Source of the DNA: Escherichia phage vB_EcoM_HZ_ZJUN4
DNA length: 64,000 nt
Strand: one strand, 5' to 3'
Sequence record: PP216085
Below are positions 4,567-51,288 of the stretch, in pieces. Under the pieces are notes generated by a model. That model was not told the origin of the DNA. It searched no databases and saw only the letters and a list, made by a program, of their open reading frames with translations. How positions within the stretch are numbered: the stretch's first letter is position 1; each line of letters starts with the position of its first letter. The translations under genes were made by a program, and so were the position numbers.

Positions 4567-4767
4567 ATGAATCCTGAATCTAAATTATCGCAACGAATTG
4601 CTGAAGCTCGTCGTCAGTTCTTTGAAAATATGATAGCCCAAGGTATTGATGACGAAGTTTTTCTGAACTGGTTTTGGAATCACAAATATTCAAAATGCGC
4701 AGGAGCAATATTAATATCAGCCGCAATGATGTACGAAGGCTGGAAGGGTGCCAAACAGTTTAGCTAA
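4567..4767 (+). CDS. hypothetical protein
   Basis: 66-aa ORF abutting previous stop, followed by terminator hairpin. Confidence 0.45.
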   Translation: MNPESKLSQRIAEARRQFFENMIAQGIDDEVFLNWFWNHKYSKCAGAILISAAMMYEGWKGAKQFS

Positions 4768-4785
4768 GGGCTTCGGCCCTTTTTG
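4767..4785 (+). terminator. intrinsic terminator hairpin agggcttcggccct + TTTT
   Basis: GC stem with UUCG tetraloop and T run. Confidence 0.6.
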
Positions 4786-7202: not shown

Positions 7203-8405
7203 ATGAAAGTATGTATTTTTATGGCTCGAGGTCTTGAAGGTTGCGGTGTAACTAAATTTTCTCTTGAGCAGCGTGATTGGTTTATTAAAAATGGTCATGA
7301 AGTAACTTTGGTTTATGCTAAAGATAAATCATTTACTCGTAATTGCGCGCATGATTATAAATCATTTTCAATTCCGGTTTTATTGGCAAAAGAATACGAT
7401 AAAACACTTAAGTTGGTAAATGATTGTGATATTCTAATTATCAATTCAGTTCCTGCTACTTCAGTTGAAGAAGACACGATTAATAACTATAAAAAAATTA
7501 TTGATAACATTAAACCTTCGGTTCGTGTTGTAGTTTATCAGCATGACCATTCTTCTCTTTCTTTACGCCGAAATTTGGGATTAGAAGAAACTGTTCGTCG
7601 AGCTGATGTTATTTTTAGCCATTCTGATAATGGCGATTTTAATAAAGTTTTAATGAAAGAATGGTATCCAGAAACTGTTTCACTGTTTGATGATATTGAA
7701 GAAGCACCGACTGTATATAACTTTCAGCCTCCTATGGATATTGCGAAGGTTCGATCAACTTACTGGAAAGATGTTTCTGAAATTAACATGAATATCAACC
7801 GTTGGATTGGTCGTACTACTACATGGAAAGGCTTTTATCAGATGTTTGATTTTCACGAAAAACATCTTAAACCTGCAGGACTAAGTACTATTATGGAAGG
7901 TCTGGAACGTTCTCCAGCGTTCATTCCTATTAAAGAAAAAGGAATTCCATACGAGTATTATCGTCTTCATCAAGTAGACCAAATTAAAATTGCTCCTAAT
8001 TTGCCAACGCAAATTCTCGACCGTTATGTAAATAGCGAAATGCTTGAACGTATGAGTAAATCCGGATTTGGTTATCAGCTGAGTAAATTAGATAAAAAAT
8101 ATCTACAACGTTCTTTAGAATACACTCATCTCGAGCTTGGTGCATGCGGAACAATTCCAGTATTTTGGAAATCTACTGGTGAAAATTTAAAATTCCGTGT
8201 TGATAATACTCCGTTAATTTCTCATGATAGCGGTATCGTTTGGTTTGATGAAAATGACATGAAATCAACATTTGAGCGTATTAAAGAACTGTCATCTGAC
8301 CGAGCTCTTTATGACCGTGAACGTGAAAAAGCTTATGAATTTTTGTATCAGCATCAAGATTCAAGCTTCTGCTTTAAAGAGCAGTTTGACATTATTACAA
8401 AATAA
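7203..8405 (+). CDS. a-gt: DNA alpha-glucosyltransferase
   Basis: 400-aa ORF MKVCIFMARGLEGCGVTKF... recognised as T4 alpha-gt; position upstream of 47. Confidence 0.88.
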   Translation: MKVCIFMARGLEGCGVTKFSLEQRDWFIKNGHEVTLVYAKDKSFTRNCAHDYKSFSIPVLLAKEYDKTLKLVNDCDILIINSVPATSVEEDTINNYKKIIDNIKPSVRVVVYQHDHSSLSLRRNLGLEETVRRADVIFSHSDNGDFNKVLMKEWYPETVSLFDDIEEAPTVYNFQPPMDIAKVRSTYWKDVSEINMNINRWIGRTTTWKGFYQMFDFHEKHLKPAGLSTIMEGLERSPAFIPIKEKGIPYEYYRLHQVDQIKIAPNLPTQILDRYVNSEMLERMSKSGFGYQLSKLDKKYLQRSLEYTHLELGACGTIPVFWKSTGENLKFRVDNTPLISHDSGIVWFDENDMKSTFERIKELSSDRALYDREREKAYEFLYQHQDSSFCFKEQFDIITK

Positions 8406-8420
8406 AGGGCTTCGGCCCTT
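8405..8420 (+). terminator. hairpin aagggcttcggccctt
   Basis: GC stem with UUCG loop directly after a-gt stop. Confidence 0.55.
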
Positions 8421-8446
8421 TAGCTTTATACGGAGTTTGATATAAT
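8421..8446 (+). promoter_or_regulatory. candidate middle promoter (tAGCTTTA box 8421-8428, TATAAT 8441-8446)
   Basis: Same hairpin-box-TATAAT architecture recurs at 39301-39341. Confidence 0.4.
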
Positions 8447-12425: not shown

Positions 12426-13112
12426 ATGAAACTGTCTAAAGATACTACTGCTCTGCTTAAAAATTTCGCTACTATTAACTCTGGTATTATGCTTAAATCC
12501 GGTCAATTTATTATGACTCGCGCGGTTAATGGTACTACTTATGCGGAAGCAAATATTTCTGACACTATTGATTTTGATGTAGCAATTTACGATTTGAACG
12601 GTTTTCTCGGTATTCTGTCTCTAGTTAATGACGATGCAGAAATTTCCCAGTCAGAAGATGGTAATATTAAAATTGCTGATGCCCGTTCAACAATTTTTTG
12701 GCCAGCAGCCGATCCGAGTACAGTAGTTGCTCCTAATAAACCAATTCCATTCCCGGTAGCATCTGTTGTTACTGAAATTAAAGCTGAAGACCTTCAACAG
12801 CTGTTGCGTGTATCTCGTGGTCTGCAGATTGATACAATTGCTATCACAGTAAAAGAAGGTAAAATCGTAATTAATGGTTTTAATAAAGTGGAAGATTCTG
12901 CTTTGACTCGTGTTAAATATTCTTTGACTCTTGGTGATTATGATGGTGAAAATACATTTAATTTCATTATCAATATGGCAAATATGAAAATGCAACCAGG
13001 AAATTATAAACTTCTGCTCTGGGCAAAAGGTAAACAAGGTGCTGCTAAATTTGAAGGTGAACACGCGAATTATGTAGTAGCTCTTGAAGCTGATTCTACC
13101 CACGATTTTTAA
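12426..13112 (+). CDS. 45: sliding clamp gp45
   Basis: 228 aa, MKLSKDTTALLKNFATINSGIMLKSGQ... recognised as T4 gp45. Confidence 0.93.
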   Translation: MKLSKDTTALLKNFATINSGIMLKSGQFIMTRAVNGTTYAEANISDTIDFDVAIYDLNGFLGILSLVNDDAEISQSEDGNIKIADARSTIFWPAADPSTVVAPNKPIPFPVASVVTEIKAEDLQQLLRVSRGLQIDTIAITVKEGKIVINGFNKVEDSALTRVKYSLTLGDYDGENTFNFIINMANMKMQPGNYKLLLWAKGKQGAAKFEGEHANYVVALEADSTHDF

Positions 13113-13115
13113 TAG

Positions 13116-13132
13116 AGGGCTTCGGCCCTTTA
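13116..13132 (+). terminator. hairpin agggcttcggccct + T-rich
   Basis: GC stem and UUCG loop after gene 45 stop. Confidence 0.5.
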
Positions 13133-13163
13133 TAATTTACATTAAAACTTGAATGAGGAAATT

Positions 13164-14689: not shown

Positions 14690-15058
14690 ATGATTGAAAT
14701 TACTCTTAAAAAACCTGAAGATTTTCTGAAAGTAAAAGAAACTTTGACTCGCATGGGAATTGCTAATAATAAAGATAAAGTTCTGTATCAGTCCTGTCAT
14801 ATTCTTCAGAAAAAAGGACTATACTATATCGTTCATTTTAAAGAAATGCTTCGTATGGATGGTCGTCAAGTTGAAATGACAGAAGAAGATGAAGTTCGTC
14901 GTGATTCGATTGCATGGCTGTTAGAAGATTGGGGACTGATTGAAATCGCTCCAGGTCAAAGAACTTTTATGAAAGATTTAACTAATAACTTCCGAGTTAT
15001 TTCTTTTAAGCAAAAACATGAATGGAAACTCGTTCCTAAATATACGATTGGAAATTAA
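14690..15058 (+). CDS. regA: translational repressor RegA
   Basis: 122 aa MIEITLKKPEDFLKVKETLTRMG... recognised as T4 RegA. Confidence 0.9.
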   Translation: MIEITLKKPEDFLKVKETLTRMGIANNKDKVLYQSCHILQKKGLYYIVHFKEMLRMDGRQVEMTEEDEVRRDSIAWLLEDWGLIEIAPGQRTFMKDLTNNFRVISFKQKHEWKLVPKYTIGN

Positions 15059-15060
15059 GC

Positions 15061-15078
15061 AAGGGGCTTCGGCCCCTT
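15061..15078 (+). terminator. hairpin aaggggcttcggcccctt
   Basis: Strong GC stem with UUCG loop after regA. Confidence 0.55.
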
Positions 15079-15136
15079 ATTTGGAGTATAATATATCAAG
15101 AGCCTAATAACTCGGGCTATAAACTAAGGAATATCT

Positions 15137-17833: not shown

Positions 17834-17847
17834 TAGAATAAATCTAG

Positions 17848-17868
17848 GGACCTCCGGGTCCCTTTTTC
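17848..17868 (+). terminator. hairpin gggacctccgggtccc + TTTTT
   Basis: Perfect GC stem and T run after gene 43. Confidence 0.65.
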
Positions 17869-17940
17869 ATACAAGTAATATAAATCTATACTTAGGAAAA
17901 ATAGATGATTCTGGGCCCTTTGAATTCATTAAAAATTTTT

Positions 17941-18014
17941 TCACAAAATGGTTTACATCTCTGTTCTTCCGTGGTACTATACAACTATCAACTGATGCGG
18001 ATTTGGAGAATGAA
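17941..18014 (+). promoter_or_regulatory. early promoter/leader cassette copy A (PeSL-like): GTTTACA...TGGTACTATACAACTATCAACTGATGCGGATTTGGAGAATgAAATG
   Basis: About 60 bp shared with copy at 46711-46785; partial matches at 50571-50652, 37481-37563 and 47440-47504. Confidence 0.7.
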
Positions 18015-18395
18015 ATGAAAATCGCTATTTTGGTTATTGCATTGGGTCTTACTGGTTGTGTAGCTCAAGGACCGGTAGTAAATCAATCTGATGTAGGAAA
18101 AATTGTAAACTGTTCAAGCAAATTTTATAATCCTAATGTTAAGTGTTATAAAGAAGCTCCAAAACAGACATTAGAACAAATGCAGGCGAATTTTGATGAA
18201 GCTATTCGTCCAGATGAATCTGCACAAGCATATCGTAATTCAGATGTAATTACACGCGAAGAAAAAATTGAAAACTACTGCGCTGTGCTTTGGGCAAATT
18301 GGGCTAATAATTACCAATGGCGCACAGGTAAAAATGCTCCAATGGAGTATGTAGTGAATTCTTATAATTCATGTGTAAAAAATTTGACTAAGTGA
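18015..18395 (+). CDS. predicted lipoprotein (signal peptide with LTGC lipobox), function unknown
   Basis: MKIAILVIALGLTGC...; track ORF 17826-18395 extends into promoter, true start at ATG 18015 after GGAG. Confidence 0.6.
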   Translation: MKIAILVIALGLTGCVAQGPVVNQSDVGKIVNCSSKFYNPNVKCYKEAPKQTLEQMQANFDEAIRPDESAQAYRNSDVITREEKIENYCAVLWANWANNYQWRTGKNAPMEYVVNSYNSCVKNLTK

Positions 18396-18807: not shown

Positions 18808-19548
18808 ATGATTAATGACTCTATGACAGTTGAAGAAATTCGTCTTCATTTGGGAATTGCATTAAAGGAAAAAGATTTTGTAATTGACAAAACCGGGGTT
18901 AAAACTATTGAAATTATTGGTGCATCATTTGTAGCAGATGAACCTTTTATTTTTGGCGCTCTTAATGATGAATACATTCAGCGTGAACTTGAATGGTATA
19001 AGTCTCAAAGTTTGTTTGTTAAAGATATTCCAGGTGAAACACCAAAGATTTGGCAGCAGGTAGCATCTTCTAAAGGCGAAATTAACTCGAATTATGGTTG
19101 GGCTATTTGGTCAGAAGATAACTATGCTCAGTATGATATGTGTTTAGCTGAACTTGGTCAAAATCCTGATTCTCGGCGTGGTATCATGATTTATACTCGT
19201 CCATCCATGCAGTTTGACTACAATAAAGATGGTATGTCAGATTTCATGTGTACGAATACAGTACAGTACCTGATTCGTGATAAGAAAGTCAATGCAGTAG
19301 TAAGCATGAGAAGCAATGATTGCTGGGCAGGCTATCGTAATGATTATGCTTGGCAAAAATACGTACTAGATAAATTAGTATCTGACTTGAATGCAGGCGA
19401 CCCATCGCGGCAATATAAAGCAGGTTCTATTATATGGAACGTTGGAAGTCTTCATGTGTACGAAAATCAGTTTTATTTAGTTGACCATTGGTGGAACACC
19501 GGTGAGACTCATATTGCTAAAAAGGATTATACTGGAAAATGGAAGTAA
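18808..19548 (+). CDS. 42: dCMP hydroxymethylase gp42
   Basis: 246 aa; thymidylate-synthase-like fold sequence recognised as T4 gp42. Confidence 0.9.
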   Translation: MINDSMTVEEIRLHLGIALKEKDFVIDKTGVKTIEIIGASFVADEPFIFGALNDEYIQRELEWYKSQSLFVKDIPGETPKIWQQVASSKGEINSNYGWAIWSEDNYAQYDMCLAELGQNPDSRRGIMIYTRPSMQFDYNKDGMSDFMCTNTVQYLIRDKKVNAVVSMRSNDCWAGYRNDYAWQKYVLDKLVSDLNAGDPSRQYKAGSIIWNVGSLHVYENQFYLVDHWWNTGETHIAKKDYTGKWK

Positions 19549-20180
19549 ATGTGCCACATGTTTATAAGTATAAACATCCTAAAACTAAAAAGTGGTATAT
19601 AGGAAGTCATGATGGTCACAACCCGAATTATGATGGTTCGGGTGTAGTTTGGCAACATGCTAAAAAGAAATATGGAATAAAATCCTTTAATAAAGAAATA
19701 TTATATGAAGGACCAATGTTTAGACAGGTTGAAGAAATTATTTTAACTTGTTTAGATGCTGCTAATTGTCCGGATTCATATAATTTAAAGAATGAAGCAT
19801 GGGGAGGAAGTTTTCCAGGCAAATTAAATGGAATGTACGGTAAAAAACTATCTCCAGAAGAAAGATATAAGTGCGGAAATGCCTTTCGTGGAATCAAGCG
19901 TCCTGATCATTCTAAAAGAATGAAAGGCGAAGGTAATCCAATGTATGGTAAAAATGAGCAGGCATATGGAATTATAAATCGAGCCAAGGAAAATTCTGGT
20001 AAAACTTATGAAGAAATTTTTGGCGTAGAAAAAGCTAAAATAATTAAAGAAACGATGTCTAAAAATCGTAAAGGAAAACCTCATAATTTGATAGAAAAAA
20101 TATGTCCGCATTGCGGACTAAAAGGACGTGGGCCAAATATGACAAGATACCATTTTGACAAATGTAAGGCACTTAAATGA
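19539..20180 (+). CDS. GIY-YIG homing endonuclease-like protein (Seg-like)
   Basis: N-terminal VYKYKHPKTKKWYIGS (GIY..YIG variant); C-terminal CPHCG..C zinc finger; overlaps gene 42 stop. Confidence 0.6.
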   Translation: MEVNVPHVYKYKHPKTKKWYIGSHDGHNPNYDGSGVVWQHAKKKYGIKSFNKEILYEGPMFRQVEEIILTCLDAANCPDSYNLKNEAWGGSFPGKLNGMYGKKLSPEERYKCGNAFRGIKRPDHSKRMKGEGNPMYGKNEQAYGIINRAKENSGKTYEEIFGVEKAKIIKETMSKNRKGKPHNLIEKICPHCGLKGRGPNMTRYHFDKCKALK

Positions 20181-22624: not shown

Positions 22625-24052
22625 GTGGTAGAAATTATTCTTTCTCATCTCATATTTGATCAAGCTTATTTTTCAAAAGTTTGGCCATATATGGATTCAG
22701 AATATTTTGAAAGTGGTCCAGCTAAAAATACATTCAAATTAATTAAATCACATGTTAATGAGTATCATAGCGTTCCATCTATTAATGCGTTAAATGTTGC
22801 ATTAGAAAATAGTTCATTTACTGAAACAGAATATTCTGGTGTAAAAACACTTATTTCAAAACTAACCGATTCTCCGGAAGACCACAGCTGGTTAGTAAAA
22901 GAAACAGAAAAATATGTTCAGCAAAGGGCGATGTTTAACGCCACATCTAAAATAATTGAAATTCAAACCAATGCTGAGCTTCCTCCAGAAAAACGAAATA
23001 AGAAAATGCCGGATGTAGGTGCTATTCCTGACATCATGCGCCAAGCATTATCAATTTCATTTGATAGTTACGTTGGTCATGATTGGATGGATGACTATGA
23101 AGCACGTTGGCTATCTTATATGAATAAAGCTCGTAAGGTTCCATTTAAACTCAAAATTCTAAATAAAATTACTAAAGGCGGAGCTGAGACTGGAACACTG
23201 AACGTTTTAATGGCTGGTGTTAACGTTGGTAAGTCATTAGGTCTATGTTCATTGGCAGCAGATTATTTGCAGCTCGGTCATAATGTTCTTTACATTTCAA
23301 TGGAAATGGCAGAAGAAGTCTGTGCTAAACGTATTGACGCTAATATGCTTGACGTTTCTCTTGATGACATTGATGATGGGCATATTTCTTACGCTGAATA
23401 TAAAGGAAAAATGGAAAAATGGCGTGAGAAATCTACTCTCGGTCGTTTAATCGTTAAACAGTATCCTACTGGTGGTGCAGACGCTAATACATTTCGTTCT
23501 CTTTTGAACGAATTGAAGCTCAAGAAGAATTTTGTTCCAACAATCATTATTGTTGACTATCTAGGTATTTGTAAATCTTGTCGCATCAGAGTTTACTCAG
23601 AAAATAGTTACACAACTGTTAAAGCTATCGCAGAGGAATTGCGTGCTCTGGCTGTTGAAACCGAAACTGTTCTTTGGACTGCAGCACAGGTTGGTAAGCA
23701 GGCTTGGGATTCTTCTGATGTTAACATGAGCGATATTGCAGAATCCGCCGGTCTTCCAGCAACAGCCGATTTTATGCTTGCGGTCATTGAAACCGAGGAG
23801 TTAGCAGCTGCTGAACAACAACTCATTAAGCAAATCAAATCACGATATGGTGATAAGAATAAATGGAATAAGTTTTTGATGGGTGTTCAAAAAGGAAATC
23901 AAAAATGGGTAGAAATTGAGCAAGATTCTACTCCAACCGAAGTGAACGAAGTAGCAGGTTCACAGCAGATTCAGGCTGAGCAGAATCGCTATCAAAGAAA
24001 CGAATCTACTCGAGCCCAGTTAGATGCTTTGGCAAATGAATTAAAATTTTAG
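22625..24052 (+). CDS. 41: replicative DNA helicase gp41 (DnaB-like)
   Basis: 475 aa; Walker A GVNVGKS; GTG start; recognised as T4 gp41. Confidence 0.93.
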   Translation: MVEIILSHLIFDQAYFSKVWPYMDSEYFESGPAKNTFKLIKSHVNEYHSVPSINALNVALENSSFTETEYSGVKTLISKLTDSPEDHSWLVKETEKYVQQRAMFNATSKIIEIQTNAELPPEKRNKKMPDVGAIPDIMRQALSISFDSYVGHDWMDDYEARWLSYMNKARKVPFKLKILNKITKGGAETGTLNVLMAGVNVGKSLGLCSLAADYLQLGHNVLYISMEMAEEVCAKRIDANMLDVSLDDIDDGHISYAEYKGKMEKWREKSTLGRLIVKQYPTGGADANTFRSLLNELKLKKNFVPTIIIVDYLGICKSCRIRVYSENSYTTVKAIAEELRALAVETETVLWTAAQVGKQAWDSSDVNMSDIAESAGLPATADFMLAVIETEELAAAEQQLIKQIKSRYGDKNKWNKFLMGVQKGNQKWVEIEQDSTPTEVNEVAGSQQIQAEQNRYQRNESTRAQLDALANELKF

Positions 24053-24083
24053 TTTACAAGCTGACAGGACTATGGTATAGTAG
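24048..24083 (+). promoter_or_regulatory. T4-type early promoter (GTTTACA 24052-24058, TATAGT -10 24076-24081)
   Basis: Consensus-like -35 GTTTAC and TGGTATAGT. Confidence 0.55.
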
Positions 24084-24110
24084 TCTTGTTGGTTAAATGA
24101 GGAGATTGTT

Positions 24111-24294: not shown

Positions 24295-24549
24295 ATGCAC
24301 ATTGTTTTATTTAAACCTACTCCATACAGTGAATCATACTGTGTTAGGAAAAATACAAAATTTAAATTACCTATTTCATCCGCATGGGAATTGGTATTAG
24401 ATATTCCAGCAGAAGAAAGCCCTCCATTCGGTCGAGTGGAATTTATTGAGTTTGTTGTACGTCCTACGAAGCGACAGATTCGCCAATGCAAAAGATACTT
24501 TCGTAAAATAGTCAAGTTAGAGAAACAGTTACTGATGCTAGTAAAATAG
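24295..24549 (+). CDS. hypothetical protein (T4 61.4 position)
   Basis: ORF with GAGGA SD before ATG 24295; track start 24253 overlaps dmd. Confidence 0.45.
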   Translation: MHIVLFKPTPYSESYCVRKNTKFKLPISSAWELVLDIPAEESPPFGRVEFIEFVVRPTKRQIRQCKRYFRKIVKLEKQLLMLVK

Positions 24550-24583
24550 TAGTTTACAAGCTGATAGAGTTGTGTTATAGTAA
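24548..24583 (+). promoter_or_regulatory. T4-type early promoter (GTTTACA 24552-24558, TATAGT 24576-24581)
   Basis: Near duplicate of promoter at 24048. Confidence 0.55.
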
Positions 24584-24612
24584 TTCTATCAGCTAATCGC
24601 GGAGAAAAGAAA

Positions 24613-24867
24613 ATGATGCTAGTTAATAGAGAATATCAGTTTAAATCAGAAGAAGATTTGGAAAAATTCGCAAGTGGTTGTGAACTGAATAGACGCACAG
24701 CTAAAGTCATAGGATTAAAACCCTTTACAGTTCTAGATTGTGAAGTTTCTAAATTCCGCAGAGGGTGTTCTATTAGCGGTCATGCTCTGGTTGATGGGAA
24801 CACATTTTTCTTTGTTTTTAGCGTCAGAGAACTTTTATTGATTAACGAACTTGAGGAAATAAAATAG
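24613..24867 (+). CDS. hypothetical protein
   Basis: 84-aa ORF downstream of early promoter. Confidence 0.5.
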   Translation: MMLVNREYQFKSEEDLEKFASGCELNRRTAKVIGLKPFTVLDCEVSKFRRGCSISGHALVDGNTFFFVFSVRELLLINELEEIK

Positions 24868-24924
24868 TTTACTTTTGTTGGAAATTGAGATACTATATAA
24901 ACATAAACTACTGAGGAGATTATC

Positions 24925-25218
24925 ATGAAAAAATTTGTTTTTGCTGCAATTTTTGCTTTGACTTCTTGTGCTGCTCAGCCTGCTATGGCGGGTTATGATA
25001 AAGATTTGTGCGAATGGTCTATGACTGCAGATCAGACTGAGGTTGAAACTCAAATTGAAGCGGATATTATGAATATCGTTGAGCGTGATCGTCCTGAAAT
25101 GAAAGCTGAAGTACAAAAACAGCTTAAATCTGGTGGTGTAATGCAGTATAATTATGTTCTGTATTGCGATAAAAACTTCAATAATAAAAATATCATCGCT
25201 GAAGTGGTAGGTGAATAA
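24925..25218 (+). CDS. sp: Spackle (Sp), periplasmic superinfection-exclusion / lysozyme-inhibitor protein
   Basis: 97 aa with signal peptide MKKFVFAAIFALTSCAAQPAMA; recognised as T4 Sp. Confidence 0.8.
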   Translation: MKKFVFAAIFALTSCAAQPAMAGYDKDLCEWSMTADQTEVETQIEADIMNIVERDRPEMKAEVQKQLKSGGVMQYNYVLYCDKNFNNKNIIAEVVGE

Positions 25219-27224: not shown

Positions 27225-27269
27225 GCGTCGTCCTCCTTTAAATTAAATATTTATCGCAAATTTTACAAA

Positions 27270-27305
27270 ATTTGTTTACTTTCTCAGCTTGTTGTGGTAT
27301 TATAA
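27270..27305 (+). promoter_or_regulatory. T4-type early promoter (GTTTAC 27274-27279, TATTAT 27298-27303)
   Basis: Consensus-like elements 25 nt upstream of ATG 27329. Confidence 0.55.
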
Positions 27306-27328
27306 AATAAACTGCTGAGGATAATATA

Positions 27329-28668
<1,340 letters not shown>

Positions 28669-28728
28669 CTGCTTATATATTCAAATGATATAATTATTTA
28701 ACTTATTAATGAATTGAAAGGAAAACTA

Positions 28729-33403: not shown

Positions 33404-33440
33404 AGTTGTTTACAAGCTGAAGTAAAAATGTTATAGTATA
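33404..33440 (+). promoter_or_regulatory. T4-type early promoter (GTTTACA 33408-33414, TATAGT 33433-33438)
   Basis: Pattern match. Confidence 0.55.
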
Positions 33441-36109: not shown

Positions 36110-36785
36110 TTTTATTATAGATTTTGAAACAATGGGAAGCGGTGAAAAAGCAGCTGTTATTGATTTGGCTGTTATTGCCTTTGACCCTAATCCAGAAGTA
36201 GTTGAATCATTTGATGAATTAGTTTCACGTGGCATTAAAATCAAGTTTGATTTAAAAAGCCAAAAAGGACATCGTCTTTTTACTAAAAGCACTATCGAAT
36301 GGTGGAAAAATCAGTCTCCTGAAGCTCGAAAAAATATTGCACCATCAGATGAAGATGTAAGCACTATCGATGGTATTGTAAAATTTAATGATTACATCAA
36401 TGCGCATAACATCGATCCTTGGAAATCTCAAGGCTGGTGCCGTGGAATGTCGTTTGATTTTCCAATTTTAGTCGATCTCATTCGCGATATTCAACGTCTT
36501 AATGGCGTTTCTGAGAATGAACTTGACACATTTAAGTTAGAACCATGTAAATTCTGGAATCAGCGTGATATTCGTACAAGAATTGAAGCACTTCTGCTTG
36601 TTCGTGATATGACCACGTGTCCTCTTCCAAAGGGAACTTTAGATGGATTCGTTGCACATGATTCTATTCATGACTGTGCGAAAGACATCCTGATGATGAA
36701 GTATGCTTTGCGATATGCTATGGGTCTTGAAGATGCTCCGTCAGAAGAAGAGTGCGATCCTCTATCTCTTCCAACAAAACGATAA
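36102..36785 (+). CDS. dexA: exonuclease A (DEDDh 3'-5' exonuclease)
   Basis: 227 aa from ATG 36102; Exo I motif IIDFETMG and later H..D motif. Confidence 0.8.
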   Translation: MFDFIIDFETMGSGEKAAVIDLAVIAFDPNPEVVESFDELVSRGIKIKFDLKSQKGHRLFTKSTIEWWKNQSPEARKNIAPSDEDVSTIDGIVKFNDYINAHNIDPWKSQGWCRGMSFDFPILVDLIRDIQRLNGVSENELDTFKLEPCKFWNQRDIRTRIEALLLVRDMTTCPLPKGTLDGFVAHDSIHDCAKDILMMKYALRYAMGLEDAPSEEECDPLSLPTKR

Positions 36786-36787
36786 AA

Positions 36788-36823
36788 AGTTGTTTACTTC
36801 CTCGGTTAGTTGTGGTATTATAA
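36788..36823 (+). promoter_or_regulatory. T4-type early promoter (GTTTAC 36792-36797, TATTAT 36816-36821)
   Basis: Pattern match. Confidence 0.55.
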
Positions 36824-37465: not shown

Positions 37466-37480
37466 AGTTTAAAATTTTTT

Positions 37481-37563
37481 CATAAAACTATATACATCAG
37501 TAGTTGATTATGGTACTATATCAATATCAACTACTGATACAGAAAAACAACTTGGAGAATAAA
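37481..37563 (+). promoter_or_regulatory. promoter/leader cassette copy D (PeSL-like, diverged)
   Basis: Shares aaaattttttca, tggtactata, tatcaactactgatacag and ggagaataaaatg with copies A-C. Confidence 0.55.
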
Positions 37564-37833
37564 ATGGAAAACTTAATTATCATCGAGCAATCTTTCAACG
37601 ATTATGGTATGGCTTACGGTTATCGTGCGATAATGGAAGATTCTCGTGGATGTGTTATCGATATTGCTGAATGTAAAGATTTACTGCAGCTTTTGAAGAT
37701 TGTTCGCAAAAATTGGGATTGTGAAAACATTAAAGTTCGTGTTGTAACGGAAGAAGAAACTGTTTTTCATGATGTAAAATTTGCCAAAGGTGCTGCTACT
37801 CTTCTGAAACGCATCGCTCCACTGTTCAATTAA
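37564..37833 (+). CDS. hypothetical protein
   Basis: 90 aa from ATG 37564 after cassette leader (track ORF 37504-37833 extends into the leader). Confidence 0.5.
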   Translation: MENLIIIEQSFNDYGMAYGYRAIMEDSRGCVIDIAECKDLLQLLKIVRKNWDCENIKVRVVTEEETVFHDVKFAKGAATLLKRIAPLFN

Positions 37834-39034: not shown

Positions 39035-39299
39035 AATTATGAAATATGTTAATCGTTCTATCGCAGCATTAGTATTAGCAGTATCTTTAGTAGGATGTAC
39101 TGATGCTGATAATGCAACCAAAGTTTTGTCTTCAAGCGGTTTTACTAATATTGAAATCACTGGATATAATTGGTTCGGTTGCTCTGAAAATGATTTCCAA
39201 CACACTGGATTTCGTGCTATTGGACCTACCGGGCAGAAAGTAGAAGGAACAGTATGTTCTGGTCTATTCTTCAAGGATTCGACTATCCGTTTTAAATAA
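39027..39299 (+). CDS. predicted lipoprotein (signal peptide, LVGC lipobox)
   Basis: MKYVNRSIAALVLAVSLVGCTD... Confidence 0.5.
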   Translation: MSEIMKYVNRSIAALVLAVSLVGCTDADNATKVLSSSGFTNIEITGYNWFGCSENDFQHTGFRAIGPTGQKVEGTVCSGLFFKDSTIRFK

Positions 39300-39300
39300 A

Positions 39301-39314
39301 AGGCCTTCGGGCCT
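39301..39314 (+). terminator. hairpin aggccttcgggcct
   Basis: GC stem and UUCG loop after lipoprotein gene. Confidence 0.5.
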
Positions 39315-39315
39315 T

Positions 39316-39341
39316 TAGCTTTATGATTACCGGAGTATAAT
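39316..39341 (+). promoter_or_regulatory. candidate MotA-dependent middle promoter (tAGCTTTA 39316-39323, TATAAT 39336-39341, 12-nt spacing)
   Basis: Same module as 8421-8446. Confidence 0.45.
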
Positions 39342-39368: not shown

Positions 39369-40919
39369 ATGATTAAGAATGAAATTAAAATTCTAAGCGA
39401 TATTGAACATATCAAAAAGCGTAGCGGCATGTATATTGGCTCTTCTGCTAATGAAATGCATGAGCGCTTTCTGTTTGGTAAATGGGAAAGTGTTCAGTAT
39501 GTACCTGGTCTTGTTAAGCTTATTGATGAAATTATCGATAACTCAGTAGATGAAGGTATTCGTACTAAGTTTAAATTCGCAAATAAAATTAATGTTACTA
39601 TTAAAAACAATCAAGTAACAGTTGAAGATAACGGTCGTGGTATTCCACAAGCGATGGTTAAAACACCTACCGGTGAAGAAATTCCTGGTCCTGTTGCTGC
39701 ATGGACTATTCCAAAAGCAGGCGGTAACTTTGGTGATGATAAAGAACGCGTCACTGGCGGTATGAACGGTGTTGGTTCTAGTTTAACTAACATTTTTTCT
39801 GTGATGTTTGTCGGTGAAACTGGCGACGGTCAAAATAATATTGTAGTTCGTTGTTCAAATGGCATGGAAAATAAATCATGGGAAACTATTCCTGGAAAAT
39901 GGAAAGGAACTCGCGTTACTTTCATTCCTGATTTTATGTCATTTGAAACTAATGAGCTATCTCAAGTTTATCTTGACATTACACTAGATCGTCTCCAGAC
40001 ACTTGCAGTAGTTTATCCTGATATTCAATTTACCTTTAATGGTAAAAAGGTTCAGGGTAATTTTAAGAAATATGCACGCCAATATGATGAACACGCTATC
40101 GTTCAAGAACAAGAAAATTGTTCTATTGCGGTTGGTCGTTCACCCGATGGTTTTCGTCAATTAACATACGTCAATAACATTCATACTAAGAATGGTGGCC
40201 ATCACATTGACTGCGTTATGGATGATATTTGTGAAGACCTTATTCCACAAATCAAACGTAAGTTCAAAATTGACGTAACTAAAGCACGTGTTAAAGAATG
40301 TTTGACTATCGTTATGTTTGTTCGTGATATGAAAAACATGCGATTTGATTCTCAAACTAAAGAGCGTCTGACTTCTCCATTTGGTGAAATCCGTAGTCAT
40401 ATTCAGCTTGATGCTAAAAAGATTTCACGTGCTATTTTGAATAATGAAGCAATTTTAATGCCAATCATTGAAGCTGCCTTGGCTCGTAAATTGGCGGCAG
40501 AAAAAGCAGCAGAAACTAAAGCAGCTAAAAAGGCTTCTAAAGCTAAGGTTCATAAACATATTAAAGCGAATCTTTGCGGTAAAGATGCTGATACTACTCT
40601 TTTCTTGACTGAGGGTGATTCTGCTATCGGATATCTTATTGATGTTCGTGATAAAGAACTTCATGGTGGTTATCCATTGCGTGGTAAAGTTCTTAACAGT
40701 TGGGGTATGTCATATGCTGATATGCTTAAAAATAAAGAACTGTTTGATATTTGCGCAATCACTGGATTAGTTCTTGGTGAAAAGGCGTTTGAAGAAAAAG
40801 AAGATGGCGAGTGGTTTACTTTCGAACTAAATGGCGATACAATTATCGTAAATGAAAATGATGAAGTACAGATTAATGGTAAATGGATAACAGTAGGTGA
40901 ATTACGAAAAAATCTATAA
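39369..40919 (+). CDS. 39: DNA topoisomerase II large subunit gp39 (GyrB-like ATPase), N-terminal part of split gene
   Basis: 516 aa from ATG 39369; GHKL ATPase motifs (NSVDEG, GRGIP, GGMNGVGSS). Confidence 0.9.
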   Translation: MIKNEIKILSDIEHIKKRSGMYIGSSANEMHERFLFGKWESVQYVPGLVKLIDEIIDNSVDEGIRTKFKFANKINVTIKNNQVTVEDNGRGIPQAMVKTPTGEEIPGPVAAWTIPKAGGNFGDDKERVTGGMNGVGSSLTNIFSVMFVGETGDGQNNIVVRCSNGMENKSWETIPGKWKGTRVTFIPDFMSFETNELSQVYLDITLDRLQTLAVVYPDIQFTFNGKKVQGNFKKYARQYDEHAIVQEQENCSIAVGRSPDGFRQLTYVNNIHTKNGGHHIDCVMDDICEDLIPQIKRKFKIDVTKARVKECLTIVMFVRDMKNMRFDSQTKERLTSPFGEIRSHIQLDAKKISRAILNNEAILMPIIEAALARKLAAEKAAETKAAKKASKAKVHKHIKANLCGKDADTTLFLTEGDSAIGYLIDVRDKELHGGYPLRGKVLNSWGMSYADMLKNKELFDICAITGLVLGEKAFEEKEDGEWFTFELNGDTIIVNENDEVQINGKWITVGELRKNL

Positions 40920-41715
40920 TGACTTAATAGTGCGGGGTAAAACCCGCGTTTCTAAATTTAAGGGTGAAATTCATCATATCCTTCCAAGATCAATGGGAGG
41001 TTCTGATGATAAAGAAAATTTGGTGAAACTGACTTTTCGTGAACATTTTTTAGCACATTTTCTACTATATAAAATTCATCGTAATCGTGAAATGGCATAT
41101 GCGATGAATAGAATGTTAAACACTGAAAAATATTTACGTTCTAGTAAATTATATGAAATTACTAGAATTTACCATCAAAGAGCAGTATCTGAATGGTCAA
41201 AAAACTTTATGAAAGATAAAGTTTTAATGAGAAGTATTAAATCGGGTAAATGCGCCTTATTAATTAAAGGATCATTTAACCCAAAGGAATGGTGCGGTGT
41301 TAATAAAGGTGTTAAGCTTCCTGGAATTAAAGGCATGACATGCTTTAAAAATGAAAAAGGCGAAGTTTTTCGTCTTCATGTTAATGATCCACGCATTAAA
41401 GCTGAAAAATTAGTTGGTATTGGAAATACTGTTGCTGCTACTGCAAAAGCAGCTGAACTTGAAAAAGCGAAACCATGGTATAATAAATCAGCGACAAATC
41501 CAGAGGCTGTAAAATTAATACCAAATTTATATGAATGGTACGTCACGAAATATGACCCCGATCATTATAAACGAACGGGAGTTGCTAAATGGAAATCAGT
41601 TAATAATATAACTGTGAATTCAAAATTATTCGGCCGAGCATTTAATGAATTTAAACGCGGTTGGATTCCTGATGAAAAGTTCTATGAGGTGTATAATGAA
41701 ATTTGTAAAAATTGA
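40897..41715 (+). CDS. mobA: HNH homing endonuclease (MobA-like) between genes 39 and 60
   Basis: 272 aa; EIHHILPRSMGGSDDKENLVKLTFREHFLAHF HNH core; overlaps 39 end and 60 start. Confidence 0.7.
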   Translation: MNYEKIYNDLIVRGKTRVSKFKGEIHHILPRSMGGSDDKENLVKLTFREHFLAHFLLYKIHRNREMAYAMNRMLNTEKYLRSSKLYEITRIYHQRAVSEWSKNFMKDKVLMRSIKSGKCALLIKGSFNPKEWCGVNKGVKLPGIKGMTCFKNEKGEVFRLHVNDPRIKAEKLVGIGNTVAATAKAAELEKAKPWYNKSATNPEAVKLIPNLYEWYVTKYDPDHYKRTGVAKWKSVNNITVNSKLFGRAFNEFKRGWIPDEKFYEVYNEICKN

Positions 41716-41833
41716 TTCTTCTAGCGTTGATATGAAAAAATATAAATTGCAGAACAATGTTCGTCGTTCTATTAAATCCTCTTCAATGAACTATGCGAAT
41801 GTCGCTATTATGACAGACGCAGATCACGATGGA
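41696..41833 (+). CDS. 60: topoisomerase II subunit gp60, codons 1-46 (pre-bypass)
   Basis: MKFVKIDSSSVDMKKYKLQNNVRRSIKSSSMNYANVAIMTDADHDG ends at take-off GGA followed by TAG. Confidence 0.9.
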
Positions 41834-41883
41834 TAGCCTTCGGGCTATCTATAGAAATACCTCATAATTAAGAGATTATTGGA
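41834..41883 (+). promoter_or_regulatory. 60: gene 60 translational bypass coding gap (50 nt): UAG stop plus take-off stem-loop tagccttcgggctatct, ending at landing GGA 41881-41883
   Basis: Sequence GAT GGA TAG CCTTCGGGCTATCTATAGAAATACCTCATAATTAAGAGATTATT GGA TTA GGT matches the T4 gene 60 hop element as I recall it. Confidence 0.9.
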
Positions 41884-42228
41884 TTAGGTTCTATTTATCC
41901 TTCTCTGCTCGGATTTTTTAGTAATTGGCCAGAATTGTTTGAACAAGGAAGAATTCGCTTTGTCAAAACTCCTGTAATCATCGCTCAGGTCGGTAAAAAA
42001 CAAGAATGGTTTTATACAGTCGCTGAATATGAGAGTGCCAAAGATGCTCTACCTAAACATAGCATCCGTTATATTAAAGGACTTGGCTCTTTGGAAAAAT
42101 CTGAATATCGTGAGATGATTCAAAACCCAGTATATGATGTTGTTAAACTTCCTGAGAACTGGAAAGAGCTTTTTGAAATGCTCATGGGAGATAATGCTGA
42201 CCTTCGTAAAGAATGGATGAGCCAGTAG
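41884..42228 (+). CDS. 60: gp60 post-bypass segment (LGSIYPSLLGFFSNW...)
   Basis: In-frame continuation after landing codon; track lists only 41935-42228 from an internal Met. Confidence 0.88.
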   Translation, partial: LGSIYPSLLGFFSNWPELFEQGRIRFVKTPVIIAQVGKKQEWFYTVAEYESAKDALPKHSIRYIKGLGSLEKSEYREMIQNPVYDVVKLPENWKELFEMLMGDNADLRKEWMSQ

Positions 42229-44685: not shown

Positions 44686-45624
44686 ATGTACAATATTAAA
44701 TGCCTGACCAAAAACGAACAAGCTGAAATTGTTAAACTGTATTCAAGCGGTAATTATACCCAACAGGAATTGGCTTATTGGAAAGATGTATCGGTTGACA
44801 CCATCCGTCGTGTTTTGAAAAATGCTGAAGAAGCTGAACGCTCCAAAGTTACTATTAGCGGTGACATTACAGTTGAAGTTAAGAGTGATGTAGCTATTGC
44901 TCCAGTTGCTAAATCTGACATTATTTGGAATGCATCTAAAAAATTCATTTCAATTACTGTTGACGGCGTAACTTATAACGCAACTCCTAATACTCATTCA
45001 AACTTCCAGGAAATTCTTAACCTGCTTGTTGCAGATAAATTGGAAGAAGCAGCACAAAAAATTAACGTTCGTCGCGCTGTTGAAAAATATATTTCCGGTG
45101 ATGTTCGAATTGAAGGTGGAAGCTTGTTCTATCAAAACATTGAATTGCGGTCTGGTTTAGTTGATCGTATTCTCGATTCGATGGAAAAAGGCGAAAACTT
45201 TGAATTTTATTTTCCGTTCTTGGAAAATCTGCTGGAAAACCCAAGCCAAAAAGCGGTATCTCGACTCTTTGATTTCTTGGTAGCAAACGATATTGAAATT
45301 ACAGAAGACGGTTACTTCTATGCTTGGAAAGTAGTTCGCAGTAATTACTTTGACTGCCATTCAAATACTTTTGATAACAGTCCTGGTAAAGTAGTTAAAA
45401 TGCCACGTACTCGTGTGAATGACGATGATACACAAACTTGTTCTCGTGGTCTGCATGTGTGTTCTAAATCTTATATTCGTCACTTTGGCAGTTCAACCAG
45501 CCGAGTTGTAAAAGTTAAAGTACATCCTCGCGATGTAGTATCAATTCCGATTGATTACAACGATGCTAAAATGCGTACCTGCCAATACGAAGTAGTTGAA
45601 GACGTTACTGAACAATTTAAATAA
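44686..45624 (+). CDS. rIIB: rIIB protein
   Basis: 312 aa directly after rIIA. Confidence 0.88.
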   Translation: MYNIKCLTKNEQAEIVKLYSSGNYTQQELAYWKDVSVDTIRRVLKNAEEAERSKVTISGDITVEVKSDVAIAPVAKSDIIWNASKKFISITVDGVTYNATPNTHSNFQEILNLLVADKLEEAAQKINVRRAVEKYISGDVRIEGGSLFYQNIELRSGLVDRILDSMEKGENFEFYFPFLENLLENPSQKAVSRLFDFLVANDIEITEDGYFYAWKVVRSNYFDCHSNTFDNSPGKVVKMPRTRVNDDDTQTCSRGLHVCSKSYIRHFGSSTSRVVKVKVHPRDVVSIPIDYNDAKMRTCQYEVVEDVTEQFK

Positions 45625-45639
45625 GGGCTTCGGCCCCTT
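45623..45639 (+). other. RNA hairpin aagggcttcggcccctt overlapping rIIB stop (no T run)
   Basis: GC stem with UUCG loop; may be a stability element rather than terminator. Confidence 0.4.
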
Positions 45640-45652
45640 ACTGAGGAAAATT

Positions 45653-45847
45653 ATGTTAGGTTATCAAGCACGAGTAAAAGAAGAATACGATCAATTAATG
45701 CTCAAAATTAATGCGCTGAGCAAATTTTTAGAAAGCACAAAGTTTCTAACGATTAATGAAGTTGAACAAGAATTACTGCTTTCACAGTTCATCTCAATGA
45801 AATCTTACGCAGATTGTTTAGAAAAAAGAATTGCACAATTCAAATAA
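45653..45847 (+). CDS. hypothetical protein (64 aa)
   Basis: ATG 45653 after GAGG; track ORF 45596-45847 reads through the hairpin. Confidence 0.45.
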   Translation: MLGYQARVKEEYDQLMLKINALSKFLESTKFLTINEVEQELLLSQFISMKSYADCLEKRIAQFK

Positions 45848-45850
45848 AAT

Positions 45851-45870
45851 AAGGGGCTTCGGCCCTTTTG
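45851..45870 (+). terminator. hairpin aaggggcttcggccctt + TTGTTTT
   Basis: GC stem, UUCG loop, T-rich tail. Confidence 0.6.
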
Positions 45871-45885
45871 TTTTAAGGAAAAATT

Positions 45886-46705: not shown

Positions 46706-46710
46706 AAAAT

Positions 46711-46785
46711 TTCACAAAACGGTTTACATACCACAAGGACTGTGGTACTATACAACTATCAACTGATGCGGATTTGGAGAATAAA
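46711..46785 (+). promoter_or_regulatory. early promoter/leader cassette copy B (PeSL-like)
   Basis: ttcacaaaacggtttaca...tgtggtactatacaactatcaactgatgcggatttggagaataaaatg, near-identical to copy A. Confidence 0.7.
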
Positions 46786-46992
46786 ATGTTTACTACAGCT
46801 GAATTAAAACGAGCAAAAGCTAAGAAAGGGCAAGGAAAATATAAAGCTGAATTAGTTAAAGAACTTCAGTTTGCTGAGGCTGAATTGAATTCAATGATTA
46901 TTCAAAATGCTCCAGAAACTGAAATTGCTCTTAAACGTATTGCGAATAAGTGTCTTCGTGATGCAATTGTCGATCTTTTAGCGGATTATTGA
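46786..46992 (+). CDS. hypothetical protein (68 aa)
   Basis: ATG 46786 directly after cassette leader; track ORF 46687-46992 includes leader. Confidence 0.5.
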   Translation: MFTTAELKRAKAKKGQGKYKAELVKELQFAEAELNSMIIQNAPETEIALKRIANKCLRDAIVDLLADY

Positions 46993-47261
46993 ATAAAATG
47001 AAATTTAAATTTTATTACGCTAAACATAAAATAACTGATGAGTTTGTGTCAGTTGAATATTCTAGCGATGATGAAGGTATGATTTATACTCGCTTGGGAC
47101 TATCGCACTGGGAGTCTGATACGCCTTATTTTTCAACTCCCGAAGAAATTACACGCTTAGTTAATGGTCATATGAATGACCACTGGAATGTAATTCTTTC
47201 AGATAGTCTTAAAGCGGCTATTAATAGTAATGAAATGAAAATCGCTGAGATTGAACTATGA
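46989..47261 (+). CDS. hypothetical protein
   Basis: 90-aa ORF, ATGA overlap. Confidence 0.5.
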   Translation: MNKMKFKFYYAKHKITDEFVSVEYSSDDEGMIYTRLGLSHWESDTPYFSTPEEITRLVNGHMNDHWNVILSDSLKAAINSNEMKIAEIEL

Positions 47262-47439
47262 GTTCATTATGGTGGTGTTTTGTTTGGTTAATTAGTATTC
47301 CATTGATTTGTTTAGTATTTACTTTTGTGATGAGGTTATTATGAAAATTTTGAATTCTGTACTTATTGCTTGTGCATGGTGGGTTGCGCAAGTTTCAGCA
47401 GTAGTAGTTGGTATTCACATTTATTACGAATATTTTTAA

Positions 47440-47504
47440 AAAAGTTATTTACAAGACTGTTCCTCTGTGGTATTATTACCCTATCAACTACGGAGGAACA
47501 GAAA
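47440..47504 (+). promoter_or_regulatory. early promoter/leader, diverged relative of the PeSL-like cassette (ATTTACA...TGGTATTATTACCCTATCAACTACGGAGGAACAGAAAATG)
   Basis: Shares tatcaact and ggag-aaaatg leader. Confidence 0.45.
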
Positions 47505-47618
47505 ATGAAAAAGATTGTTAAAGCTATATGGAATGTAGTTATAATACTAATAGTTTTGAGTATATTCCCAATCGTTTTAATGATTGATGTATTAAACGCT
47601 TACTTTGGATTTATGTGA
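47505..47618 (+). CDS. hypothetical small membrane protein (37 aa)
   Basis: Hydrophobic; ATG after leader. Confidence 0.35.
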   Translation: MKKIVKAIWNVVIILIVLSIFPIVLMIDVLNAYFGFM

Positions 47619-50525: not shown

Positions 50526-50530
50526 TTTTA

Positions 50531-50558
50531 GGGAGAGCCTCGGCTCTCCCTTTTTTAT
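50531..50558 (+). terminator. intrinsic terminator gggagagcctcggctctccc + TTTTTTATTT
   Basis: 8-bp GC-rich stem plus T run. Confidence 0.7.
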
Positions 50559-50570
50559 TTCAAAATTTTT

Positions 50571-50652
50571 TTCACAAAACGGTTTACAACCAAAGCATAC
50601 TGTGGTACTATACAACTATCAACTACTGATACAGAATTACGGAGATTAGAAA
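50571..50652 (+). promoter_or_regulatory. early promoter/leader cassette copy C (PeSL-like) upstream of motA
   Basis: ttcacaaaacggtttaca...tgtggtactatacaactatcaactactgatacagaattacggagattagaaaatg. Confidence 0.65.
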
Positions 50653-51288
50653 ATGTCTAAAGTAACTTACATCATCAAAGCTTCTAACGATGTTCTGAAT
50701 GAAAAAACTGCTGCGATTTTAATTACCATTGCTAAGAAAGATTTCATTACAGCTGCAGAAGTTCGTGAGGTGCATCTAGATTTAGGTAACGCAGTAGTTA
50801 ATAGTAATATTGGGGTATTGATTAAAAAAGGCCTGGTGGAGAAATCTGGTGATGGATTAATCATTACAGGTGAAGCTCAGGATATTATTTCAAATGCAGC
50901 AACTTTATACGCACAGGAAAATGCTCCTGAACTGTTGAAAAAACGAGCAACACGTAAAGCTCGCGAGATTACTTCCGATATGGAAGAAGATAAAGACTTC
51001 ATGTTAAAACTTTTAGATGAAAATGGATTTGTTCTTAAAAAAGTTGAAACTTATCGTAGTAACTATCTCGCTATTTTAGAAAAACGCACTCACGGAATTC
51101 GCAATTTTGAAATTAACAACAATGGAAATATGCGAATTTTTGGATACAAAATGATGGAACATCATATTCAGAAATTTACTGATATTGGAATGTCATGTAA
51201 AATCGCTAAAAACGGTAATGTGTATCTTGACATTAAACGCTCGGCAGAAAACATTGAAGCTGTAATCACCGTAGCATCTGAACTGTGA
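50653..51288 (+). CDS. motA: middle-transcription activator MotA
   Basis: 211 aa MSKVTYIIKASNDVLNEKTAAILITIAKKDF... recognised as T4 MotA. Confidence 0.9.
   Translation: MSKVTYIIKASNDVLNEKTAAILITIAKKDFITAAEVREVHLDLGNAVVNSNIGVLIKKGLVEKSGDGLIITGEAQDIISNAATLYAQENAPELLKKRATRKAREITSDMEEDKDFMLKLLDENGFVLKKVETYRSNYLAILEKRTHGIRNFEINNNGNMRIFGYKMMEHHIQKFTDIGMSCKIAKNGNVYLDIKRSAENIEAVITVASEL

Follow-up and report, generated by a model that had tools for sequence, protein, structure and literature searches.

Five sites in a 64,000-nt stretch of the genome of Escherichia phage vB_EcoM_HZ_ZJUN4 (sequence record PP216085; the whole stretch is hereafter called the window) carry a closely similar early promoter and leader, the first of them at positions 17941–18014. 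These sites raise the question of whether their similarity is simply that of a generic promoter consensus or that of related modules at which genes are gained and lost. A sequence-only reading of the window had proposed the latter, describing the sites as a family of modular cassettes that resemble the promoter-early stem-loop cassettes (PeSLs) of T4-type phages and that carry different cargo genes.

A Distinct Subfamily of Early Promoters

The window belongs to a Tequatrovirus (T4-like coliphage); it is 96–97% identical to the genomes of EP01, BF15, WL-3, and CJY920, and its 36.5–52.5 kb stretch matches CJY920, LH2, and others at 95–97%. Gene order was read from annotated relatives and T4. 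Along the + strand, in the sense of early transcription, it runs nrdD ... 43, imm.1, imm, 42 ... motB, cef ... 39/60, rIIA, rIIB, denB, the ndd cluster, ac, 52, motA.1, motA, the arn genes, and asiA. The five cassettes, here labeled A to E, are located in the imm (A), denB–ndd (B and E), motA (C), and motB–cef (D) regions, and their orientation agrees with that of the early genes.

By a combination of sequence reading and repeat searches, we recovered the five sites to within 1–2 nt of where the sequence-only reading had placed them. The near-identity over some 60 bp that it reported between 17941–18017 and 46711–46788 also proved real: cassettes A (17940–18017) and B (46711–46788) are identical at 66 of 78 positions, and 10 of the 12 mismatches fall within the 13-nt spacer that separates their −35 and −10 elements. 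Upstream of this spacer, TTCACAAAAYGGTTTACA is identical at 17 of 18 positions, and downstream of it the two copies share 46 of 47 nt, from GTGGTACTAT through the ATG. The 21-mer core GGTACTATACAACTATCAACT has exact copies at 17973, 46744, and 50604 and a copy with three mismatches at 37512 (0.00 occurrences expected, from 100 shuffles), and TTCACAAAAYGGTTTACA has five matches at three mismatches or fewer, against 0.21 expected.

A multiple alignment of the five cassettes revealed four invariant blocks: an A/T tract, T.TACA, TGGTA.TAT, and TATCAACT. The common architecture is, in order, an A/T-rich tract, TTTACA, a 17-bp spacer, TGn, TAYTAT, a discriminator/start block ending in TATCAACT, a leader, GGAG, and ATG. 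The tract 5′ of the −35 element is UP-element-like in all five copies (AAAATTTTTTCACAAAA or equivalent), its A/T columns being invariant. The −35 element is TTTACA in A, B, C, and E and TATACA in D; the −10 element, preceded by TGn in every copy, is TACTAT in A, B, C, and D and TATTAT in E. Transcription is predicted to begin 7 nt past the −10, at the A of ATCAACT. A GGAG Shine–Dalgarno (SD) sequence, found 7–11 nt 5′ of the ATG in five of five cases, forms the 3′ end of the element together with the start codon (18015 in A, 46786 in B, 50653 in C, 37564 in D, and 47505 in E). At each of the five sites, therefore, a T4 early promoter, a leader, and an SD sequence stand directly 5′ of a different ORF, as the earlier reading had it.

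Because many T4 early promoters share these promoter elements, we listed every TTTAC-N17-TAnnAT site in the window. About ten other early promoters were found on the + strand (24053, 24553, 27275, 29966, 32074, 33409, 36793, 36895, 42229, and others); despite their −35, TGn, and −10 elements, the ACAACTATCAACT core and the leader were absent from these promoters across the window. The similarity of the five sites thus exceeds the generic early-promoter consensus, which we reject as its sole source, and includes a conserved leader; we regard these sites as a distinct subfamily. Weaker relatives of the family precede sp (24868), asiA (53035), and a 60-aa ORF (3887). The first, the early promoter of sp (spackle; 24868–24925, + strand), has the core GATACTATATAAACATAAACT, with five mismatches, and the leader ACTGAGGAGATTATC. 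Other early promoters of the window form subfamilies with spacers and leaders of their own (27267–27305 and 36785–36823; 24042–24105, 24542–24605, and 33404–33438), with 87% agreement over 39 nt and a leader of the form ...CTGAGGATAATAnAATG.

Individual Cassettes and Their Genes

All the features described in this section lie on the + strand. Cassette A (17939–18017) is composed of the A/T tract and TTCACAAAATGG, a −35 TTTACA (17952–17957), the 17-bp spacer, TGn (17972–17974), and the −10 TACTAT (17975–17980), with the core at 17973–17993. Its leader (17987–18014), whose predicted +1 is A17987, runs into GGAGAATGAAA (18005–18015), which resembles both an SD sequence and a RegB site (see below), and the ATG (18015–18017) opens its cargo, imm.1 (18015–18395; phrog_1754), a 126-aa predicted lipoprotein with the lipobox LTGC. 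An intrinsic terminator hairpin after gene 43 (17846–17868, stem-loop 17846–17863; AGGGACCTCCGGGTCCCT followed by a T run), about 90 nt 5′ of the −35, is the "stem-loop" partner of this cassette.

Cassette B (46710–46788) is directly 3′ of denB and contains a −35 TTTACA (46723–46728), a −10 TACTAT (46746–46751), the core (46744–46764; predicted +1 at A46758), and an exact RegB/S1 consensus, GGAGAATAAAA (46776–46786), which reaches the ATG at 46786. Its orthologue in phage fPS-65 is annotated as "predicted early promoter." The variable cargo of cassette B is a 68-aa ORF (46786–46992; phrog_4535), followed by an 87-aa ORF (46998–47261; phrog_2390). Farther downstream, cassette E (47435–47507) has a −35 TTTACA (47448–47453), TGn, a −10 TATTAT (47471–47476), the variant core GGTATTATTACCCTATCAACT (47469–47489), and the short leader ACGGAGGAACAGAAA, and its ATG at 47505 is that of ndd.4 (47505–47618; phrog_3098), a 37-aa membrane peptide.

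Cassette C (50570–50655) is the promoter and leader of motA, with a −35 TTTACA (50583–50588), a −10 TACTAT (50606–50611), the core (50604–50624), a predicted +1 at A50618, and the SD/RegB site GGAGATTAGAA (50641–50651). The ATG at 50653 begins the gene for the middle-transcription activator MotA (50653–51288; phrog_1345, E = 1.9e−98). The intrinsic terminator hairpin after motA.1 (50530–50557, stem-loop 50530–50551; AGGGAGAGCCTCGGCTCTCCCT followed by a T run) lies 32 nt 5′ of the −35. Cassette D (37478–37566) is located between motB and an 89-aa ORF (37564–37833; phrog_3720), which is its cargo, and combines a degenerate −35, TATACA (37491–37496), with TGn and a −10 TACTAT (37514–37519), the variant core GGTACTATATCAATATCAACT (37512–37532), a predicted +1 at A37526, and an exact RegB/S1 consensus, GGAGAATAAAA (37554–37564), before the ATG at 37564. 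The degenerate −35 is kept in every relative examined, and TGn/−10, core, and RegB site are intact; cassette D may rely on its extended −10, or it may be less strong than the other four.

The five downstream proteins are mutually unrelated and fall into separate PHROG families; four of the five genes are small ORFs whose PHROGs are of unknown function, and the fifth is motA. The sequence-only reading described them correctly as a lipoprotein, a 68-aa protein, motA, and a 37-aa membrane peptide; only its "90-aa" ORF has to be amended, to 89 aa.

The Leader RNA and the Predicted RegB/S1 Site

The leader is roughly 20–40 nt long and is devoid of U-rich or G/C-rich features. Its conservation between unrelated genes, together with a small palindrome (TATCA-N5-TGATA) in the leaders of C and D, is what one would see if it were a structured cis-regulatory RNA of co-regulated genes, such as an attenuator, a riboswitch-like element, or a translational operator hairpin. 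However, the spacing of the palindrome is not kept in A and B, and folding of the five leaders gave z-scores from −0.43 to +1.46, no better than shuffled sequences, the leader of E not folding at all; the leaders are therefore unstructured. Moreover, no Rfam family was matched anywhere in the window, and RegB/S1 needs single-stranded RNA (PMC1702504). We therefore rejected a structured leader as extremely improbable.

What the 3′ end of the leader does match is the published consensus for cleavage by RegB and ribosomal protein S1, GGAGAAUAAAA (GGAGRAYARAA), a single-stranded target that usually overlaps the SD sequence of early genes (PMC1702504; PMC3014915). The sequence-only reading was right about a conserved leader and had overlooked this nuclease site at its conserved end. 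In the 64 kb, GGAGRAYARAA has only two exact matches, those of B (46776) and D (37554); A (18005) and C (50641) each differ from it by one mismatch, and the site of E, GGAGGAACAGA, is a GGAGG variant without the A-rich tail. Given the weak predicted folds of the leaders, these RegB-like sites fall in predicted single-stranded RNA. They share with the RegB/S1 sites of T4 early mRNAs a GGAG within the SD sequence, then an A-rich AAUAAAA, in unstructured RNA (PMC1702504). T4 motA is a good RegB substrate, and its cleavage has been published (Durand et al. 2006, PMC1702504; PMC3014915); the T4 motA leader is the cassette C sequence. For the leaders of A, B, D, and E (imm.1, ORF68, ORF89, and ndd.4), cleavage by RegB is predicted from the resemblance of their sites.

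The cassette thus probably provides strong immediate-early transcription and translation followed by a RegB-mediated shut-off, a course of events that is predicted for all the genes concerned except motA in T4. The host sigma-70 RNA polymerase would use it as a very strong UP/−35/TGn/−10 promoter, and the short unstructured leader, with GGAG 7–11 nt before the ATG, would allow efficient early translation. Because this GGAG lies within the RegB/S1 target, the message could be cut in its ribosome-binding site, and expression would be turned off within minutes.

Distribution among Tequatrovirus

All five cassettes are present in T4 at the same loci, cassette C corresponding almost nucleotide for nucleotide to the promoter and leader of T4 motA; no promoters are annotated at these loci in the T4 records NC_000866 and AF158101. 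The 47-mer was found at 1102 places in 524 phage records, all of the T4-like coliphage group (Tequatrovirus). The complete genome of CJY920 contains about 12 family members, all of them on the early-transcribed strand, and in IMG/VR and the other genomes compared, the exact 21-mer precedes at least ten different ORFs from unrelated PHROG families.

Gene Gain and Loss at Cassette Boundaries

If the cassettes mark cargo insertions, as had been suggested, differences in gene content between related phages should begin or end at them. In a comparison with nine relatives, indels coincided with cassette boundaries at loci A, B, C, and D, four of the five: the ORF that comes first after the cassette has been acquired or deleted there, and the junction lies inside the cassette or at most 8 nt from the ATG.

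At locus A, an inserted 78-aa ORF, flanked by the repeat ATGAAAAT, separates the cassette from imm.1 in five relatives. Locus B exists in three states. In the window, SH-1, SF2-1, and SsoM_113, ORF68 and ORF87 come after the leader, in that order; in the second state, the leader is directly joined to ORF87; and in T4, it is fused at the ATG to the last eight codons of ORF87, annotated as ndd.6. All the junctions are at AAT(A/G)AAATG; in T4, the cassette ATG is where the deletion ends. ORF68 is flanked by direct repeats GAATAAAATG (46779–46788 and 46991–47000) and is missing from AV120, PYps55T, CJY920, TB004, CrRp10, several IMG/VR genomes, and T4. At locus C, AV120, PYps55T, and SsoM_113 carry a unit of 321–344 bp in which a different leader is combined with a 75-aa ORF and a second promoter; the unit is flanked by the 23-nt repeat CTATCAAATAAATGAACTGAAAC, beginning inside the core. 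At locus D, a 200-bp deletion that starts 4–8 nt past the ATG destroys the 89-aa ORF in T4, AV120, PYps55T, and TB004. At A, B, and D, the repeats found at the junctions span no more than 8–10 nt, which points to microhomology-mediated events rather than to homologous exchange from cassette to cassette.

The idea of cargo insertions consequently holds for some of the genes only. The 68-aa ORF of B and the 89-aa ORF of D are variable, and some relatives have extra ORFs that the window phage lacks (78 aa at A, 75 aa at C), but every relative examined retains imm.1, motA, and ndd.4, none of which is a recent insertion.

A further observation concerns the 18-mer AATGAAATGAAAATCGCT, which is present twice, at 18009–18026 and 47229–47246. 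The first copy consists of the end of the cassette A leader and the first four codons of imm.1, and the second lies inside the 3′ end of the 87-aa ORF. The T4 cassette B leader is fused exactly at the internal ATG of this second copy, so that T4 ndd.6 looks like a deletion remnant rather than a gene.

We also took a census of indels of at least 40 bp between 17 and 52 kb against the nine relatives. About 18 loci were found, of which four are at these cassettes and about five more adjoin other early promoters; some 9 of 18 are thus at an early promoter of some kind, compared with about a quarter of gene boundaries that have one. The association is well above a uniform null but not clearly above the gene-boundary null, and we claim no statistical significance for it. 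The latter null is the fair one, because viable indels of whole ORFs must end in intergenic DNA, which in these regions usually bears a promoter. The link between cassettes and indels therefore rests on the junction sequences and not on the census count. Breakpoints relative to the relatives also adjoin the other early-promoter subfamilies (24530–24860, 27254–28673, 36885, and 42219), indicating that such plasticity is not special to the five sites.

Sequence Exchange between Copies

Given that the conserved blocks are functional elements and that the −35/−10 spacers are locus-specific, selection alone could explain much of the similarity between the cassettes. Under this explanation, promoter strength, the start region, and the SD/RegB site would have been maintained in independent copies, and recombination would have no special role in gene gain and loss. 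The blocks that are conserved are indeed exactly the functional ones (UP/−35, TGn/−10 with the start region, and SD/RegB), the spacers are unrelated between loci yet stable across genomes, and matches to the RegB consensus are concentrated in the cassettes. On the other hand, other strong early promoters in the window work without the core or leader of the subfamily, some indel junctions lie inside the blocks, and cassette E and the C-locus spacer of SsoM_113 show clustered changes of multiple nucleotides to the exact sequence of a paralogue.

At locus E, the core is GGTATTATTACCC in the window, CJY920, SF2-1, and SH-1 and GGTACTATACAAC in SsoM_113 and TB004. This switch between TTACCC and ACAAC amounts to five changes in 8 nt, with otherwise near-identical flanks, and from −35 to ATG the TB004 cassette E has exactly the sequence of another cassette in that genome, the one that precedes a 175-aa ORF. 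Similarly, the C-locus spacer of SsoM_113 has been replaced, between identical flanks, by a spacer otherwise found before a 322-aa ORF (phrog_1250) in a distant cassette. When we typed spacer, discriminator, and leader across 90 cassette instances, spacers S0 and S4 were found with leaders L1 and L4 in all four combinations, as in a four-gamete test; other recombinant module combinations were S5 and S6, each with L5, and S3 with L1 or L4b. The locus E switch, the SsoM_113 spacer, and these combinations are hard to explain without gene conversion or crossover in the conserved blocks, and we therefore consider it unlikely that selection on function is the whole explanation.

The leaders of A and B also share variants (GATGCGG in the window, ACTGATACGG in T4), but inconsistently across genomes: in SF2-1, A has GATGCGG and B has GATACAG, and several genomes have a different type of B leader. 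Such data only suggest concerted evolution of these two leaders; exchange is better documented by the switch of the E core and by the SsoM_113 spacer patch. To look for a genome with the deletion expected from B × E recombination, we ran BLAST with a synthetic junction of the B core and the E leader as query; the top hits were all in two pieces, the halves being joined across the normal 500-bp interval.

It is highly probable, in our view, that the five sites are paralogous copies of a T4-type immediate-early expression cassette that is found throughout the genus and that also serves as a recombination linker, in line with the PeSL model. The homologous and microhomology recombination of T4 would act on the conserved blocks (UP/−35, the 23-nt core, and the SD/ATG end), would swap spacer and leader modules between dispersed copies, and would insert, delete, or replace the first downstream ORF. 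Exchange of sequence between copies would account for a resemblance that goes beyond functional need, and module swapping together with ORF exchange would make the cassettes both portable expression signals and recombination linkers.

Would such exchange require a dedicated factor? The module junctions cluster at TATCAA(C/A)T, and Arbiol et al. speculated that a specific factor acts on PeSLs (PMC2839356); the core might then be the recognition site of a recombination or nuclease factor, in an integron-like or homing-like system, instead of a passive homology patch. We find this very improbable: the cassettes are not accompanied by any recombinase or nuclease gene, some junctions fall elsewhere (at the SD/ATG end and in the spacer), general recombination in T4 needs only short homology (PMC2839356), and all copies are in the direction of transcription, as expected of promoters. 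A related proposal, which we put forward as a doubtful speculation, is that the core GTGGTACTATACAACTATCAACT (21–23 nt, from −10 to start) is itself the exchange site, short-patch gene conversion homogenizing about ten sites per genome, possibly with the assistance of a phage factor or of transcription-coupled breaks at the start site. If this were true, promoter–ORF units could be transferred from locus to locus, and from one co-infecting T4-like phage to another, as in an integron that lacks an integrase.

Comparison with PeSLs and Other Known Systems

PeSLs were described as promoter-early stem-loop cassettes acting as recombination linkers for the shuffling of ORFans in RB49 and phi1, with a mention of T-even analogues based on T4 early promoters (Arbiol et al. 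2010, PMC2839356). Like the cassettes described here, the RB49/phi1 PeSLs are promoter-plus-ORF homology linkers for the insertion, deletion, and replacement of ORFans, and the AV120-type insert at locus C, in which 23-nt direct repeats enclose an ORF and a promoter, is built in a way that would yield a mini-circle. The RB49/phi1 elements differ in having near-perfect TTGACA/TATAAT promoters and G/C-rich stem-loops, and their sequences are not homologous to those of the present cassettes. Promoter activity, terminator activity, and mini-circles were shown experimentally in RB49/phi1 (PMC2839356).

A close parallel is with the PST/T4 PeSLs, whose description gives the consensus TTTACW-N17-TAYWAT, SD, and ATG (Comeau, Arbiol & Krisch 2014, PMC4122927). 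These elements have in common with ours the genus, the A/T tract, the promoter, the SD/ATG end, small ORFs, hyperplastic regions, and adjacent indels, and the example in Fig. 6A of that study, an ndd.4/.5 exchange 3′ of denB, is the B/E locus (PMC4122927). By the definition given there, a stem-loop lies just upstream; the stem-loops of T-even phages are stated to be weak and variable (PMC4122927). We looked for a stem-loop upstream of B, D, and E and found none; only A and C have one, which in both is the terminator of the upstream gene. The PeSL-like character proposed by the sequence-only reading is thus supported by the SD/ATG end, the hyperplastic regions with small ORFs, and the indel junctions at the element, and its stem-loop component is restricted to A and C. 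In the accessible portion of the PST/T4 text, the core subfamily (21–23 nt), the leader modules, and junctions at the RegB site are not singled out (PMC4122927).

T4 early promoters are UP/−35/TGn/−10 promoters with additional consensus (Hinton 2010, PMC2988021); the cassettes do not differ from them in kind, and the subfamily adds the discriminator/start block and the leader to the general consensus. Early-promoter repeats that flank variable small genes, and that were proposed to act as shuffling channels, are also reported for the internal-protein loci of T-even phages (Repoila et al. 1994, cited in PMC2839356); these are different loci (ipI–ipIII), outside the window.

The element is therefore of an already described kind, orthologous to T4 elements: T4 early promoters have been known for decades and PeSLs were published in 2010 and 2014, so that our analysis adds detail and not a new principle. 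Incremental additions may be the 21–23 nt core subfamily, the mosaic exchange of modules, and the RegB/SD end as a junction of insertions and deletions. In T4-like phages, such cassettes would provide small genes of recent acquisition with an early burst of expression that is immediate, strong, and self-limiting, and they would account for gene gain and loss in variable regions without the breaking of neighboring genes. For annotation, they show where very small ORFs (ndd.4, ORF68) truly start and where gene content is likely to vary.

Other Features of the Window

Two further segments vary among the relatives. One, of 1106 bp (40786–41893), lies in the topoisomerase gene 39/60 region; it is absent from six of nine relatives and shared with T4, and at its end (about 41819–41898) it reproduces exactly the translational-bypass ("hop") region of T4 gene 60, which indicates that the phage has the T4-type split 39/60 arrangement. 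The other, of 630 bp (19544–20175), is directly 3′ of gene 42, adjoins the glucosyltransferase region, and contains a variable ORF; it is absent from CJY920, CrRp10, PYps55T, SF2-1, and SH-1 and replaced in T4. Near-identical terminator hairpins, GGGCTTCGGCCC, with a UUCG tetraloop, are scattered between genes (4754–4782, 8399–8428, 13109–13138, 15056–15085, 39294–39323, 45611–45639, and 45846–45875). Finally, a 279-aa HNH-like ORF (1563–2402) is located between nrdD (7–1566) and nrdG (2392–2862); it contains three 51-bp tandem repeats (2007–2154) that encode ...LTKLAMQKPEV(R/K)..., and it is probably a homing endonuclease with repeated DNA-binding modules.
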